Below, piece after piece: positions 2,448 through 18,217 of a stretch of DNA of 35,912 nucleotides. This DNA is from a virus. A program made the position numbers and the translations under genes. The stretch spans positions 1 through 35,912 of IMG/VR virus record IMGVR_UViG_3300045988_044516. One strand, given 5' to 3'. The notes beneath the pieces were generated by a model. That model was not told where the DNA came from and made no database searches. It was given only the letters and a program-made list of their open reading frames with translations. How positions within the stretch are numbered: the stretch's first letter is position 1; each line of letters begins with the position of its first letter.

Positions 2448-3083
2448 ATGGAATACGCAAGCAAGGGACTCGCGGGGACTGCGCTGGGCTTTGGCATCGG
2501 CGGCGCCGCGATGAGTCTGGCAAACGGCGGACTCGGCAATCTGCTGGGCGGCATCGGACAGAACAACAAGTCGGCAGCCGCTGACATCGCTGCGGCGGTC
2601 ACGCCTGCCATGACGGTCGCCGCCATGCTCGCAGCACGCCAGCAGGAGCCGACGTGCAGCGAGAACATGCCGGTCACGCGCTACGATCTTGAACGGGAGC
2701 AGAAGCTGGCCGCGAAGGACAGCGAGATCGCGCTGCTCAAGGCCAACACGTACAACGATAGCAAGATGCTGGAGGTGTACGGTTATATCGACAGGCAGCT
2801 CAAGGACGTCCATGAGGCGCTGTGCAAGCAGGCCGTCCACAACCAGCGCACCGAGGACAGCTTCACGCTGGTCAAGCAGGACGTCGAGTCTGTCCGCAAG
2901 GAAGCTCTTGGCGCGGTCAAGATGGAGGCCGAGCGCCGCTGCTGCGGCGACAACGCCCTGAAGACCTATGTCAACGCAACCTTTTATCCCAAGCAGGTCG
3001 CAGATGTCACCACAGGCACCGCGACCACGGCGCAGACGCTCTACGATCCGCTCCCGAAGTGCTGCGGCTGCTGCAACAACTAA
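2448..3083 (+). CDS. Glycine-zipper / coiled-coil / C-terminal Cys-cluster protein (211 aa), function unknown
   Basis: ATG at 2448 follows GGAGG. Motifs: GLAGTALGFGIGGAAMSLANGGLGNLLGGIG, then AAKDSEIALLKANTY, then RRCCGDN, ending KCCGCCNN. Confidence 0.8.
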   Translation: MEYASKGLAGTALGFGIGGAAMSLANGGLGNLLGGIGQNNKSAAADIAAAVTPAMTVAAMLAARQQEPTCSENMPVTRYDLEREQKLAAKDSEIALLKANTYNDSKMLEVYGYIDRQLKDVHEALCKQAVHNQRTEDSFTLVKQDVESVRKEALGAVKMEAERRCCGDNALKTYVNATFYPKQVADVTTGTATTAQTLYDPLPKCCGCCNN

Positions 3084-10962: not shown

Positions 10963-11215
10963 CATCGACTACCCCGGCGAGCGGGCGCCGCGGCGCCCCG
11001 CCGTGATCGCACAGGCCGGATACACCGGCCAGAACCACTTTTCCGTTACATATGGAGATCAGAAAGTGACCGTCCGCGCCGAGGATGGCTATGCGGCCCT
11101 TTTTACCGCCGCCAAGCACTGGGGCTATAAATTCACCCGCCCGGAGTACCATCAGAACGCCCGCGCAACCAAGCTCCACTACACGCCGGACACCCGGCCG
11201 GGGGCGCTGGTATGA
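10952..11215 (+). CDS. Hypothetical early protein (87 aa)
   Basis: TTG start lies 10 nt after AAGGAGG. Confidence 0.6.
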   Translation: MRNSIDYPGERAPRRPAVIAQAGYTGQNHFSVTYGDQKVTVRAEDGYAALFTAAKHWGYKFTRPEYHQNARATKLHYTPDTRPGALV

Positions 11216-12099
11216 GCGCGCAGGGGAAGCCGCTGCGCTGTGAGATCATCCACGATAATTTCCAGAATTACAAGAAATACAACGTGGCGAAAGCGCAGCT
11301 TGTGATCGCGGATATCCCATACAACATCGGCACGGACGCCTATGGCTCGAATCCCATGTGGTACAAGGGCGGAGACAACGCCAACGGAGAAAGCAAGCTC
11401 GCGAAAAGAGCTTTTTTCAATTCGGACGGTTATTTCAAGATCGCAGAGTATATGCACTTCTGTTCCCGGCTGCTGAGACCGGAGCCGAAGGAAAAGGGAA
11501 AAGCCCCGGCCATGATCGTATTTTGCGCGTTCGATCAGATACATACAGTCGCGGAATACGGCGCGCGGTACGGCTTTAAAAACTGGTATCCGCTTTTCTT
11601 CTGCAAGAATTATTCCGCGCAGGTGCTCAAAGCCAATATGCGGATTGTCGGCGCAACGGAATTCGCGGTCGTCCTGTACCGGGACAAGCTGCCGAAATTC
11701 AACAACGGGCGGCAGATCGGCGAGGACGGGAAGCCCATTCGGGGAACTGGGAAAATGGTGTTCGACTGGTTCCAGTGGGAGCGGGACGGGAAGGACATTC
11801 CGAAGATCCACCCCACGCAGAAGCCGGTGAAGGTGCTCCGACGTCTGATCGAGATATTTACGGATCCCGGCGAGCTGGTGATCGATCCGTGCTGCGGCTC
11901 CGGTTCGACGTTACGCGCAGCTGCGGAGGCAGGCAGAAGCGCAATCGGCTTTGAAATTGATAAGAGTTTCTATCTGGCCGCAAAAGAGAAAATGCTGGCT
12001 GGAGTACGGGAAGCACAGAAAACGGCCAGGGACGCTGGCAGCCAGATAACGATCGGCGAAATAGCAGAGGCTGCACAGCAAGGGGGGAGACCGGTATGA
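11212..12099 (+). CDS. DNA methyltransferase, beta-class N6A/N4C type
   Basis: Motif IV-like VIADIPYN lies N-terminal and motif I VIDPCCGSGSTLRAAAEAGRSAIGFEID lies C-terminal, which is the N6_N4_Mtase order. Confidence 0.9.
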   Translation: MSAQGKPLRCEIIHDNFQNYKKYNVAKAQLVIADIPYNIGTDAYGSNPMWYKGGDNANGESKLAKRAFFNSDGYFKIAEYMHFCSRLLRPEPKEKGKAPAMIVFCAFDQIHTVAEYGARYGFKNWYPLFFCKNYSAQVLKANMRIVGATEFAVVLYRDKLPKFNNGRQIGEDGKPIRGTGKMVFDWFQWERDGKDIPKIHPTQKPVKVLRRLIEIFTDPGELVIDPCCGSGSTLRAAAEAGRSAIGFEIDKSFYLAAKEKMLAGVREAQKTARDAGSQITIGEIAEAAQQGGRPV

Positions 12100-12287
12100 G
12101 GTTTGTGTGCGACGCCTGCCAGGATATCACGAACATCGAGGCCGACCGAATGGAGATCCAAGGCGACAAGCTGATGGTGTACAGCCGCGGGCGGCTGGTC
12201 TACGTTGCGGATCTGGGGCAGATCATGCTGGCCAAGCTTACGCCGGGGAGGGAGGACGGCAATGGACTTAGAACAAACCGCGATTGA
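12096..12287 (+). CDS. Hypothetical small protein (63 aa)
   Basis: ATG follows GGGGGGAGA and is coupled to the methyltransferase stop. It overlaps the next gene's start. Confidence 0.5.
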   Translation: MRFVCDACQDITNIEADRMEIQGDKLMVYSRGRLVYVADLGQIMLAKLTPGREDGNGLRTNRD

Positions 12288-13140
12288 GCGGCTGAAGATG
12301 GCCTCGGAGATGAGCTTGCGGCTGTACAAACAGCCGCTGGTGATCACGTACTCGGGCGGCAAGGACTCGGACGTGCTGCTGCATCTGGCGGAGGCAAGCG
12401 GGATCACGTTTGAGGTCCTACATAGTCTCACAACGGCGGACGCGCCGGAGACTGTCTGGCATGTGCGGGATACCTTCCGCCGCTTGGAGCTGGCTGGCGT
12501 AAAATGCGACATCGATACGCACCGGACGCCGGACGGCGGGAACGTGACGATGTGGAATCTGATCCCGCGTAATTCCGTGCCACCTACAAGAATCAGCAGA
12601 TATTGCTGCAGGGAACTGAAGGAAACCGGCGGAAAAGGACGTTTTATTGCGACGGGAGTCCGGTGGGCAGAGTCTGCAAGGCGGAAGCAATCACACGGCG
12701 TTATGGAAACTAGCCACAAGGACAAAGACAAGCGAATTATCCTGATGGACGACAACGACGAGCGGAGAATGCTCCTGGAAAACTGCCAGCTGAAAGCTCG
12801 ACGGACGGTAAACCCAATCATCGACTGGGCGGAATCTGACGTGTTGGACTACGCTTCTGCCGAAAAGATCTGCATGAATCCGCTGTATGAATGCGGATGG
12901 AAGCGCGTGGGGTGCATTGGGTGCCCAATGGCAGGGAAACACAGAAACACGGAGTTCTCGCGCTATCCAAAGATCAAGGCCGCGTATATCCGGGCGTTTG
13001 ACAGGATGCTTGCGAAACGGAAGAAGCGGGAGTCCTCGAACGACTGGCAGACCGGCGAGGACGTGATGCACTGGTGGATGGAAGATGGCGTTTTGCCGGG
13101 ACAAATGGTTCTTAAAGGAATGGAGGAGGACGCGCTATGA
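12262..13140 (+). CDS. Phosphoadenosine-phosphosulfate-reductase-family (PP-loop ATPase, DndC/IbrA-like) protein
   Basis: ATG at 12262 follows GGAGGGAGGA. PP-loop motif is VITYSGGKDSDVLL. A C-terminal Cys cluster reads CGWKRVGCIGCPM. Confidence 0.85.
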   Translation: MDLEQTAIERLKMASEMSLRLYKQPLVITYSGGKDSDVLLHLAEASGITFEVLHSLTTADAPETVWHVRDTFRRLELAGVKCDIDTHRTPDGGNVTMWNLIPRNSVPPTRISRYCCRELKETGGKGRFIATGVRWAESARRKQSHGVMETSHKDKDKRIILMDDNDERRMLLENCQLKARRTVNPIIDWAESDVLDYASAEKICMNPLYECGWKRVGCIGCPMAGKHRNTEFSRYPKIKAAYIRAFDRMLAKRKKRESSNDWQTGEDVMHWWMEDGVLPGQMVLKGMEEDAL

Positions 13141-14763: not shown

Positions 14764-15073
14764 CGAATACATCAGCCGCGAAGCGGCGCTGAAAGATTTT
14801 GAAGCCAGCAACGCTCACAATCCGTACTGGACGCCTCCGCGTGTGAAAACGCTCCTGCTTCGCCAGCCCGCCGCCGACGTTGCGGAGGTGCACCATGCAC
14901 GATGGGAAGAAGCGGACTGGCACGAATATGACGCGCAGAGCGGGGAAACGATTCGCTTTCCTAAAGCGGCAATCGTATGCTCGGACTGCCGGAACGCTTT
15001 CAAAAAGGATGCACTTTGGAAAAGGAATTCCTGTCCAAACTGCGGAGCGAAGATGGACGGAGCTGCCGAATGA
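14756..15073 (+). CDS. Hypothetical protein with C-terminal zinc ribbon
   Basis: Contains CSDCRNAF...CPNCGAKM. The start is ambiguous (TTG 14741, ATG 14747 or ATG 14756). Confidence 0.65.
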   Translation: MVDEYISREAALKDFEASNAHNPYWTPPRVKTLLLRQPAADVAEVHHARWEEADWHEYDAQSGETIRFPKAAIVCSDCRNAFKKDALWKRNSCPNCGAKMDGAAE

Positions 15074-15528
15074 GCGGCCTGCGGTTTGAATCCATGGCGG
15101 ACATGCCGCCGAGGATGCGGGAGGCTTACGCGCGGCAGATGCGCGACCTTTCAGGCGCTGCGGCGCCAGCTACCCTTCACAAGGGGAGCCATGGGAAGAC
15201 GAAGTACGGCAGCCGGAAGGATACGCGCGGCGAGCTGCGCTTCGACAGCCAGAAGGAGGCGCGGCGGTACGACGAGCTGATGGTGATGCTCCGGGCTGGC
15301 ATTATCTCCGATCTGCGGCTGCAGCCGCAATTCACGCTGCAGGAATCTTATGTGACAGAGACTGGCGAGCGCATCCGCGCAGTGCGGTACACGGCGGACT
15401 TTTCGTACAAATTCGGCGGAAAGCTGGTCGTCGAGGACGTGAAGTCCAAGCCGACGCGGACAAAGGAGTATCTGCGCAACCGGAAATTCATGCGGTCCAA
15501 ATTCGGGATCGAGATCCAGGAGGTCTGA
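15070..15528 (+). CDS. DUF1064-family protein (restriction-endonuclease-like fold, putative resolvase)
   Basis: Pattern LRFDSQKEARRYDEL...GIISDLRLQPQFTL...RYTADFSY...VVEDVKSKPT. The ATG overlaps the previous stop. Confidence 0.8.
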   Translation: MSGLRFESMADMPPRMREAYARQMRDLSGAAAPATLHKGSHGKTKYGSRKDTRGELRFDSQKEARRYDELMVMLRAGIISDLRLQPQFTLQESYVTETGERIRAVRYTADFSYKFGGKLVVEDVKSKPTRTKEYLRNRKFMRSKFGIEIQEV

Positions 15529-15529
15529 C

Positions 15530-15733
15530 ATGCCAGAAAAAAACGAGAGCAGCCCGCGCGAGGCATGCGGGCTACCGAAGCAGGGCAATGCCTGTCCGTA
15601 TGCAAAGCTCGCGCCGGTTCTTTGCGCGCGGTGCGGCTGGAACCCGGATGAGCACGCGCGGCGGCAGGCGCTGCCGTTGACCGAGAACGCCGACGGGCTG
15701 CGACACAAAGATATCAGCCAGCCCGAGGACTAA
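15530..15733 (+). CDS. Small Cys-containing protein (67 aa)
   Basis: ATG follows CAGGAGG. Confidence 0.65.
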   Translation: MPEKNESSPREACGLPKQGNACPYAKLAPVLCARCGWNPDEHARRQALPLTENADGLRHKDISQPED

Positions 15734-15744
15734 GACCAGCAATC

Positions 15745-16067
15745 AGCCGGGGAACCATATTTTTTCGGACTTATGCCGCGGCCGCTCCGCCATGAGACGG
15801 CTGCGGGAGGATCACCCCGGCTCTGCACCCGGCCCGCGAAACCTCAAGCCCGCGGGCCGGGGATAAAAAGCGCGTGTGGAACGTGCGCGCGGATGGGAAC
15901 CGTCAACGTTACCCCACGCCGGGTGTTGGGATCGCCCGGCGGCATCGTGTTACCTCCTTATGGAAAGCTGCCTGAGCAGACAAGGGCAGCTCGTCTGCGG
16001 CGACAGGGGGACGCGCAGGCGCAGGCGGTGCAAGTCCGCCCTGCATAGGGGCCGGGAGACCGGCCCC
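15745..16067 (+). other. Hairpin-dense GC-rich non-coding island (possible structured RNA or replication/packaging cis element)
   Basis: Seven strong helices were read directly, for example an 11-bp all-GC stem at 15828-38/15851-61 and GGGGCCGG-GAGA-CCGGCCCC at 16048-67. No ORF with an SD is present. Confidence 0.5.
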
Positions 16068-16086
16068 TGACGAAAGGAGAATGGAA

Positions 16087-16500
16087 ATGTCACACGTAGT
16101 CGATCTGACGGGCATGGACTTTGGATATTTGCACGTCATCGGGCGGGATACCAGCAAAAAAGGAGACAGGGCACACTGGATCTGCCGGTGTAAATGCGGG
16201 ACCATCTGCAGCAAAGACGGGAAATACCTCCGGAACGGGCATGCAAAGAGCTGCGGCTGCTTCCGGAAAGAACGCGCGGCCACGCTCGTCACCAAGAAGG
16301 ATCCAGCCAAAAAGCCAAAAGCCGAACCGAAGAAGAAAAAATTCGGCCGCGGCCCGCAGCGGGCAGGCTCCGGGATCTGCTACAACCCACTCTGTCCAAT
16401 GCGCAACAACTACCGCGGCGCCTGGAGCTGCACCGAATGCCGCTTCTGCCCGGAACGCAAATTTGCCCGCCAGTCCAGGCGGGAGATCATCACAATTTGA
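16087..16500 (+). CDS. Zinc-ribbon phage protein
   Basis: Contains LTGMDFGYLHVIGR...HWICRCKCGTICS...GHAKSCGC, then a Lys-rich linker and a second Cys cluster. The second ATG (16087) is better spaced from AAGGAGA. Confidence 0.75.
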   Translation: MSHVVDLTGMDFGYLHVIGRDTSKKGDRAHWICRCKCGTICSKDGKYLRNGHAKSCGCFRKERAATLVTKKDPAKKPKAEPKKKKFGRGPQRAGSGICYNPLCPMRNNYRGAWSCTECRFCPERKFARQSRREIITI

Positions 16501-17414: not shown

Positions 17415-17449
17415 GCTTTGAGCGGGCAGAGATGGGAGGAGCTGAGACT

Positions 17450-18217
17450 ATGGTGAAGAGGCACAAGCGTCGCCTGTTTACAGGGGCGGTATGTACGCAG
17501 ATCGTTTATACCGTGTCCGATGGCGCGGACAAAAAGACCAGCAAGCCGCGAAAGCCGCGCTTCCAGACGCAGGCGGAGCGCGATGAATTCAACAGCAAGC
17601 AATCGCTGAATCGGCTCGTTGCGCTGATGAACGACAATTTCTCGCCCACAAGCCTGTATTCCACCCTGACATTGGATGCAGAAAACGAGGTACATACCGC
17701 AGAGGAAATGCGCAGAGTGCGTGACAACCTTGTGCGCCGCATGCAGTATCACTATCCGGAGGCCAAAATCGTTGCTTTCTACGGAAGAGGAAAAACAACC
17801 AATCGCTTCCATTTGCACCTGGTAACAGAGGGGATCCCGGAAGAAGCCATCGGCGGGCTTTGGGGGCTCGGAAGCGTGATCGAGGTTCGGCACCTGCGAA
17901 AGCACAACTATTATATAGACGAGCAGGGAAACAAGGTCGACCACGGCCAGGACTACACAGCACTTGCCAGTTACCTGCATGCGCACTGGAGAAAAGAATT
18001 CGGCGGCCACCGGTACAAGGCGACGCGAAATTGTATCCGCCCAGAGCCGGAGCCCGCGACCGAGGCGGTCCGGGACTACAGCCTGACGCGCCCGCCAGTC
18101 GCCCCGCGCGGTTACATCCTCGTAGAGGCCCGGACGACAAAGTACGGGTATCAATATTATAAGTATGTAGTCGACCCAAGATTAGAGCACAAGCGGAACG
18201 GGAGCCGCTTAAATTAA
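17450..18217 (+). CDS. HUH-endonuclease-like rolling-circle replication initiator (Rep-like)
   Basis: ATG at 17450 lies 9 nt after GGGAGGA. Motif I-like is YSTLTLD. The HUH motif is RFHLHLV (H-L-H at 17810-17818). Downstream Tyr candidates are ASYLHAHWRK and HRYKATR. Confidence 0.6.
   Translation: MVKRHKRRLFTGAVCTQIVYTVSDGADKKTSKPRKPRFQTQAERDEFNSKQSLNRLVALMNDNFSPTSLYSTLTLDAENEVHTAEEMRRVRDNLVRRMQYHYPEAKIVAFYGRGKTTNRFHLHLVTEGIPEEAIGGLWGLGSVIEVRHLRKHNYYIDEQGNKVDHGQDYTALASYLHAHWRKEFGGHRYKATRNCIRPEPEPATEAVRDYSLTRPPVAPRGYILVEARTTKYGYQYYKYVVDPRLEHKRNGSRLN

Follow-up and report, generated by a model that had tools for sequence, protein, structure and literature searches.

A conserved, predicted multi-domain structured RNA between two genes of a gut phage operon, a candidate cis-acting translational gate

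Introduction

Translational platforms built from an SD, an anti-SD and an anti-anti-SD segment are found, for example, in the thiM TPP, SAM-II and preQ1-II riboswitches and in the erm leaders. In phage Mu, the 62-aa zinc-finger protein Com opens a hairpin that hides the SD of mom. Few RNA families are several hundred nucleotides long and have ten or more conserved helices, and historically such large families have proved to be ribozymes, riboswitches or unusual RNPs. ROOL (RF03087) and GOLLD (RF01998) are large ornate RNAs associated with phages and prophages (PMC5737381, PMC12286853). The structured-RNA candidates from IMG/VR reported by Fremin, Bhatt and Kyrpides (2023; PMC10690425) are 29-151 nt long.

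Here we describe an intergenic element in a stretch of viral DNA of 35,912 nt, referred to as the window. The element shares its data source (IMG/VR gut viral contigs) and its type of evidence (intergenic covariation) with the candidates of Fremin et al. (PMC10690425) and is longer than these, a comparison of reported sizes that leaves room for overlap with fragments. An earlier sequence-only reading had called the region a hairpin-dense non-coding island and offered as its function a structured non-coding RNA or leader controlling read-through, an origin recognised by an HUH Rep-like protein, or a packaging or recombination site. The best explanation of the comparative data presented below is that the region encodes a multi-domain structured RNA of ~340 nt, transcribed on the + strand within the phage's long rightward operon.

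Results

The element occupies positions 15739-16080 of the window (+ strand, ~342 nt), beginning 5 nt past the upstream ORF's stop codon and reaching the SD of the next gene. The extent given by the sequence-only reading (15734-16080) captured a real region, and only its boundaries are revised; the right one is placed at 16080 because the SD-containing tail belongs to the element. The boundaries are constant across relatives although the downstream genes differ, and the length in relatives ranges from 190 to 590 nt. Within the window the element is flanked by a 67-codon ORF on the 5' side (15530-15733), which is directly preceded by a DUF1064 resolvase-like gene (14977-15528), and by a 139-codon ORF beginning at 16081 or 16087, all of the flanking genes being on the + strand. 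As the SD (GGAG) ends at 16079, the ATG at 16087 is the more likely start of the downstream gene than the ATG at 16081. No promoter- or terminator-like sites were found flanking the element, and no terminator-like sites were found on the + strand between 15.5 and 16.5 kb; the last hairpin lacks a U tract and is not an intrinsic terminator or attenuator.

The non-coding assignment is upheld. The single 91-codon R/P/G-rich frame is not conserved, has no SD and no Pfam match, and which frame is the longest differs from homologue to homologue. Homologue indels in the element are not multiples of three, and mismatches fall on the three codon positions as 18/24/15, i.e. without bias.

All eight helices listed in the sequence-only reading were found. 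Six are perfect complements (15745-52/15815-22, 15828-38/15851-61, 15917-23/15935-41, 15966-72/15985-91, 15976-81/15993-98 and 16048-55/16060-67), and the other two (15776-84/15798-806 and 16021-28/16036-44) have one G.U pair or one bulge each, as that reading had implied. Its judgement that the density is unlikely by chance agrees with a count of 13 perfect 7-mer inverted repeats within 90 nt, compared with 3.4 +/- 2.4 in dinucleotide shuffles (n=1000); 13 was reached in 1/1000 shuffles (p ~0.001), perfect stems are ~4x denser than in shuffled sequence, and other 347-nt blocks of the window have a median of 2 such repeats. The folding z was -3.45 for the + strand and -2.3 for the - strand. 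Two details are amended. The interleaved GCAGAC/GTCTGC is complementary as described and is probably unused, with 15992-99 pairing instead with 16014-21 in all lineages. The last hairpin had been placed 13 nt before the SD; the gap to the SD (AAAGGAG, 16073-79) is 5 nt, and 13 nt is the distance to the first ATG.

The features of the secondary-structure model, together with the usual upstream neighbour, are as follows (window positions).

15530-15733, + strand: 67-aa ORF, Cys4 zinc-ribbon-like, the usual 5' neighbour
15739-15826, + strand: 5' domain, with H1, H2 and H3 separated by a large conserved internal loop
15739-41/15824-26, + strand: H1, part of the 5' domain
15745-52/15815-22, + strand: H2, with full compensation in L268, L286, L288 and L282
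15753-75 and 15807-14, + strand: the large, conserved internal loop of the 5' domain
15753-75, + strand: J2/3, U-rich, GGACUUAUG
15776-87/15794-15806, + strand: H3, with A15797 bulged and the loop CGCCAU; fully compensated in L268, L286, L288 and L282
15806-15811, + strand: SD-like GGAGGA in J3/2, single-stranded and conserved, a candidate anti-anti-SD
15828-38/15851-61, + strand: H4, an 11-bp all-G/C hairpin with the loop AAACCUCAAGC
15870-15913, + strand: H-type pseudoknot of S1 and S2; loop 3 is 15 nt in the window and AAAA in short variants
15870-74/15886-90, + strand: pseudoknot S1
15878-84/15906-13, + strand: pseudoknot S2, with A15911 bulged
15917-23/15935-41, + strand: H6, CGCCGGG/CCCGGCG; every lineage has a hairpin here, of differing sequence
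15953-59, + strand: CCUCCUU, anti-SD-like, conserved and single-stranded; 15954-59 is complementary to the SD at 16074-79
15966-72/15985-91, + strand: H7, a hairpin of 7 bp whose 12-nt loop, UGAGCAGACAAG, is conserved
15992-99/16014-21, + strand: H8, CGUCUGCG/CGCAGGCG, with stem length and interior varying by lineage
16022-28/16036-43, + strand: H9, T-loop hairpin CAGGCGG-UGCAAGU-CCGC(C)CUG, directly abutting H8
16048-55/16060-67, + strand: H10, a G/C hairpin of 8 bp; its loop varies and no U tract follows
16073-79, + strand: AAAGGAG, the SD, in a tail (GACGAAAGGAG) that accompanies the RNA regardless of the next gene

Copies of the element were gathered with motif scans (of IMG/VR, plus one scan each of metagenomes and genomes) and, by a motif-independent route, from contigs encoding diverged homologues of the upstream small protein. 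With an nhmmer profile, the full-length element was identified in 248 fetched loci, corresponding to at least 133 distinct sequences, from gut viral contigs, metagenomes and prophages in Oscillospiraceae/Clostridia MAGs. The search for related loci based on the small protein gave close relatives only; further diverged lineages are L268, L273, L276/277, L286, L288, L282/297/307 and L280. The element-bearing genome matches (L102, L103, L106, L108 and L109) are Oscillospiraceae, Clostridia or Eubacteriales MAG contigs, two of which are 78 and 140 kb long, which argues that the phages are temperate. Three other 18-mer matches, in unrelated phyla, had no profile match and are thus attributed to chance. 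No cultured or annotated phage genome carried the element, BLAST of phage records returning only two unannotated faecal-virome contigs. In the more distant of the two, MT839020, conservation is higher in the non-coding stretch than in the ORF next to it (94% identity in the 5' domain and 65% in the adjacent ORF), and several stems carry compensatory changes relative to the window. Matches to a 29-nt pseudoknot pattern in L318, L322, L333, L341 and L350 lie inside a coding gene and were discarded as chance. The pattern recurs within a conserved protein-coding gene of unrelated phages (...VVWNVRFTDVIP...), a caution for motif-only searches.

The sequence-only reading had let its case depend on conservation and covariation of the helices in relatives, and we find them conserved and compensated across lineages. 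In a helix-wise test on 25 diverse sequences, aligned with MAFFT without regard to structure (88 pairs, 2122 pair cells), 92.3% of the pair cells were canonical, compared with 38-46% when partners were slid by 1-3 columns. Both sides had changed in 29 of the 88 pairs, compared with 9-15 in the slid controls, and none of 500 shuffles matched the observed values for pairing and covariation. All-against-all column covariation was dropped in favour of the helix-wise tests and added lineages, since the two dominant clades make clade-specific columns seem covarying and this measure is therefore uninformative. The comparison comprises about ten independent lineages only, and the motif columns are invariant by construction because part of the sample was retrieved via exact motifs; diverged copies found through the neighbouring protein, as opposed to DNA motifs, still have the invariant core.

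Across the lineage table each hairpin is re-formed from other sequence in 8-11 lineages. H3, for instance, reads CCGCGGCCG, CCGCCGCCG, GCCGGCGCG or CGCAGGCUGCG depending on the lineage, and H10 reads GGGGCCGG, GGGGACCGG, CGCGGGGCGG, GCCGCAGCGCG or GCCCG, its stem being replaced in L288, L282, L297 and L280 (its 3' flank is UGACGAAAGGAG). Both sides have changed in 6/11 pairs of H4, and the stem sequence is wholly replaced in L277, L288 and L282. The closing stem of H8 is CGCCCGG/CCGGUGCG, CGCCUGCC/GGCAGGCG, CGCCCGC/GCGGGCG or CGCC/GGCG in other lineages. In H7, 100% of the pair cells are paired and two pairs are compensated. H9 contains a near-invariant GGUG.AAG.CCG together with a compensated G-C<->A-U change at 16025/16039. 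H6 is undercounted by the helix-wise test because the MAFFT columns are offset between clades. In 13 lineages 100% of the cells in pseudoknot S2 are paired and two of its pairs covary (GC<->AU and AU<->GC), and two pairs of the S1 core switch CG<->GC; slid controls were 20-47% paired. Overall these results indicate that the predicted ten helices, H-type pseudoknot and T-loop hairpin are maintained by compensatory changes in about ten lineages. G.U cells outnumber A.C cells (87 vs 39), favouring the + strand, and with all flanking genes on this strand we conclude that the folded molecule is the + strand transcript. Two tertiary contacts were considered and rejected: a loop-loop pairing of CCAUGAG in the H3 loop with CUUAUGG (15958-64) is complementary in the window only and is unconserved, and a D-loop/T-loop-like contact of the H7 loop with T-loop position 3 showed no covariation.

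Pairing between CUCCUU (15954-59) and the SD AAGGAG (16074-79) is predicted in both the RNAalifold consensus and the centroid fold. The resulting CCUCC:SD helix closes the 3' domain (H7-H10), whichever gene follows, and an equivalent duplex is present in 11 lineages; in L280 the two sides have co-changed, with CCUCUCUA opposite UAGAGA(U)GG. CCUC(C) is found at the position of 15953-59 in 11/11 lineages. The SD-like GGAGGA, or its variants GAAGGA and GGGGGA, is present in 10/10 lineages having the 5' domain. A GGAGGA:CCUCC duplex is predicted at -4.5 to -15 kcal/mol, similar in stability to CCUCC:SD in all lineages, and GGAGGA could compete for CCUCC. This pairing shows a possible co-change in L297, and L280 has no GGAGGA motif. 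The CCUCC:SD helix itself gives little covariation information, because CCUCC is complementary to an SD almost by default.

At its 5' end the RNA directly adjoins the stop codon of the preceding gene or overlaps it. In ~145/160 loci this gene is the zinc-ribbon-like ORF, which is missing in L288, where the RNA directly follows DUF1064, and which occurs without the RNA in L263, L267 and L270. The 67-aa protein has four conserved Cys (C13, C22, C32 and C35) and the conserved tail CGWNPxE..RR.ALPL...DGL.HKD. It matched no Pfam or PHROG family, and its AF2 model (pLDDT 70.6) gave no PDB fold match with E < 2. The protein is a possible partner of the RNA.

Downstream, an ORF with an SD begins 10-27 nt after the end of the profile in 158/160 loci. 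At least four unrelated gene families occupy this slot, several of them Zn-ribbon or HNH-N-terminal-like, and judged by its gene content the slot is a gene-swapping or recombination hot spot for cargo genes. In the window, the N-terminus of the 16081-16500 protein (LTGMDFGYLHVIGRD...CRCKCG) is like the Zn domain with which phage HNH homing endonucleases (phrog_374) begin, and the protein has no nuclease part; an analogous gene lies behind the RNA in L288. In the early region of the window a PAPS-reductase-like gene adjoins a DNA methyltransferase gene (12205-13140 and 11212-12099), a pair that may be a DNA-modification or anti-restriction module and has a similar counterpart in L263 and L267.

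Natural variants outline the modules of the element. A minimal form of ~190 nt in L280/L281 lacks H1-H3 and with them the 5' domain, and keeps H4, the pseudoknot, CCUC, H7-H10 and the SD. Loop 3 of the pseudoknot is cut from 15 nt to AAAA in one clade, and another clade has ~19 nt extra inside H8. A two-hairpin insert of 100-128 nt is found at peripheral sites, with two copies in L173/L176 and one in L325; in L173, H6 holds an insertion of 100 nt. The L173 copies (2708-2835 and 2929-3027) are 87% identical and lie at the H1/H4 junction and the H6 tip, and the L325 copy is at 2214-2329 on the minus strand. The two-hairpin module was found nowhere else among about 350 fetched loci and might represent either a miniature mobile insert or an expansion segment of the RNA. 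The RNA is missing in L263/264 and L267. In L270-272 only its last ~90 nt are left (H9, H10 and the SD tail; L270:3148-3260), a natural deletion that would leave the SD of the downstream gene unmasked; the remnant overlaps the 3' end of the small ORF.

The expectation of a structured RNA was borne out. No Rfam 15 family reached its gathering score anywhere in the window. At E <= 10, the window element and two diverged homologues gave chance-level matches only. ARAGORN found no tRNA or tmRNA in the window, where only the T-loop hairpin is present, and a literature search found no description of the element.

Discussion

Three conserved motifs, GGAGGA (15806-11), CCUCC (15953-57) and the SD (16073-79), co-occur in the element, which leads us to favour a role for the RNA as a gate that acts in cis on translation of the cargo gene downstream. 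We put the probability of this reading at roughly 45%. In the closed form, the SD of the cargo gene would be sequestered by CCUCC; pairing of GGAGGA from the 5' domain with the same CCUCC would release it. The switch might be triggered when a factor, either a ligand or a protein, possibly the upstream zinc-ribbon protein, binds the conserved 5' domain or the pseudoknot core, or when ribosomes terminate at the upstream stop codon and melt H1/H2. Consistent with a gate, an ORF with an SD follows the element in 158/160 loci despite four unrelated gene families, the SD tail is conserved with the RNA, and the surroundings of the element are free of promoters and terminators. Against it, L280 has lost the 5' domain and with it the proposed anti-anti-SD and still keeps the core, and relatives (L263, L267 and L270) do without the RNA. 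The heterogeneity of the regulated genes means that no ligand logic is evident. The element is also far larger and more ornate than simple SD sequestration needs, which hints at an additional or different function. With regard to the leader controlling read-through that was suggested earlier, the structured RNA is retained as a conserved, covarying + strand RNA between a stop codon and an SD; control of transcriptional read-through finds no support, there being no terminator-like site in or after the element and no U tract behind its last hairpin.

The invariant unpaired nucleotides, which are many, the pseudoknot, the T-loop and the conserved hairpin loops would also suit a stand-alone processed non-coding RNA or RNP scaffold, ROOL/GOLLD-like in spirit and acting in trans. 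The peripheral expansion inserts of 100-128 nt are tolerated as in large functional RNAs, and the core survives without the 5' domain in L280. We regard such an RNA as plausible, though less likely than the gate. Against it, in every lineage the element sits tightly between a stop codon and an SD without a promoter or terminator of its own, no ornate RNA in Rfam matches it, and the CCUCC:SD closing helix belongs to the conserved element. This reading would require release of the RNA from the polycistronic transcript and a target in the host or the phage, with the link to the downstream SD incidental, a scenario to which we give the same standing. A tentative reading of the ornate core, uncertain but with a substantial chance of being true, is that the element represents a new class of large phage RNA, in which the pseudoknot and T-loop do more than mask the SD. 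One possibility is that this core senses a small molecule, a host factor or a terminating ribosome, in which case expression of the hot-spot cargo genes would be coupled to infection state. Another possibility is a new ribozyme or RNP that acts after excision from the operon transcript.

Cutting of the operon transcript, by self-cleavage or by a host RNase (RNase P, III or Y) for which the element would be the structured substrate, seems improbable to us, as does the accompanying idea that a cut would uncouple the stability of the early-gene transcript from that of the downstream-gene transcript. The intercistronic site in a phage operon would be apt, and the stacking of H8 on the T-loop hairpin may resemble an RNase P recognition module, but ARAGORN finds no tRNA-like gene, and hammerhead, twister, HDV, pistol, hatchet and group I models gave no match at E <= 10. 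A weak, recurring match to Twister-sister (RF02681; 15.4 bits in the window and 13.1 bits in L276) is far under the gathering score of 34, and its alignment spans only 30 of 81 model positions (18-47), lying on the H9 T-loop hairpin. The likeness consists of a T-loop-type hairpin with the motif GGUGCAAG(C/U)CC and, in some lineages, a small hairpin before it. This small hairpin contributes to the match and is absent in L280 and L282, so that only H9 is conserved, and the P1/P2 internal loop that carries the cleavage site of Twister-sister was not found in the element.

We give very little credence to a site acting at the level of DNA, as had been suggested, whether as an origin that the HUH Rep-like protein (17432-18217) nicks or binds or as a site for packaging (pac) or recombination. 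G/C inverted repeats at this density could fold into hairpins or cruciforms in DNA, and a replication-initiator-like gene (phrog_3584) lies 1.3 kb downstream. However, L263 has a Rep-like gene that is 65% identical and lacks the RNA, iterons and direct repeats are absent, and covariation through G.U intermediates together with a pseudoknot is typical of RNA; the G.U pairs of the structure would turn into C.A mismatches on the opposite strand. The terminase genes follow about 3 kb further downstream, and the element is deleted in other relatives, with only a remnant in L270. Being modular and dispensable in relatives, it is no essential replication or packaging site. The 17432-18217 protein itself has an HLH (HUH-type) motif and is similar to a replication initiator (phrog_3584); the genome encoding it is that of a tailed phage and is ~36 kb long. 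A rolling-circle-type initiator is unusual for a tailed phage of ~36 kb.

A chance G/C-rich spacer, or an overlooked small protein gene in the 91-codon R/P/G-rich frame, is already refuted by the comparative data: high GC alone does yield long open frames and hairpins, and one such frame is present, but the stem density (p ~0.001), the structure kept across lineages despite sequence divergence, and the behaviour of the frame (unconserved, without SD or Pfam match, indels not in threes, no codon-position bias) all speak against it.

Returning to the translational gate, the ribosome-binding site of the cargo gene lies inside the fold, at a hot spot of swapped cargo genes, and the RNA would, if the model is right, be a portable module regulating any gene inserted behind it. 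If the model is wrong, the element is still an orphan among ornate RNAs and merits biochemical and structural work. The element is abundant in human-gut viromes, with hundreds of contigs in addition to Oscillospiraceae/Clostridia prophages, and a covariation-supported secondary-structure model, the family boundaries and natural minimal and expanded variants are now available, making the question directly testable.

Compared with known systems, the element is like ROOL and GOLLD in its multiple helices, its many conserved unpaired nucleotides, its variable peripheral expansions and its occurrence in Firmicutes phages and prophages. It differs in having no covariance-model match to either, in being about half their size or less, and in its setting, which is between ORFs and not beside tRNA genes, its closing helix taking in the downstream SD. 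As in com-mom of phage Mu, a gene for a small Cys4 protein lies directly upstream of an RNA that would occlude the next SD in a phage operon. In contrast to Com, the 67-aa protein has no Pfam match, Mu-like_Com included, and no fold match; the RNA is a 340-nt multi-helix fold where Mu has one hairpin, and the small ORF is missing in L288 and is present without the RNA in L263, L267 and L270. The element resembles the riboswitches and leaders with SD, anti-SD and anti-anti-SD segments in its position immediately 5' of an ORF, in an SD predicted to pair with a distant C/U-rich segment, in another purine tract of SD type that may compete and in a pseudoknot within the conserved core. Unlike these, the element matches no Rfam riboswitch or leader, is 3-5 times larger, precedes a regulated gene that varies, and sits between two ORFs and not behind a promoter. 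Overall the element is a new RNA family, probably working by a known principle, the sequestration of an SD.
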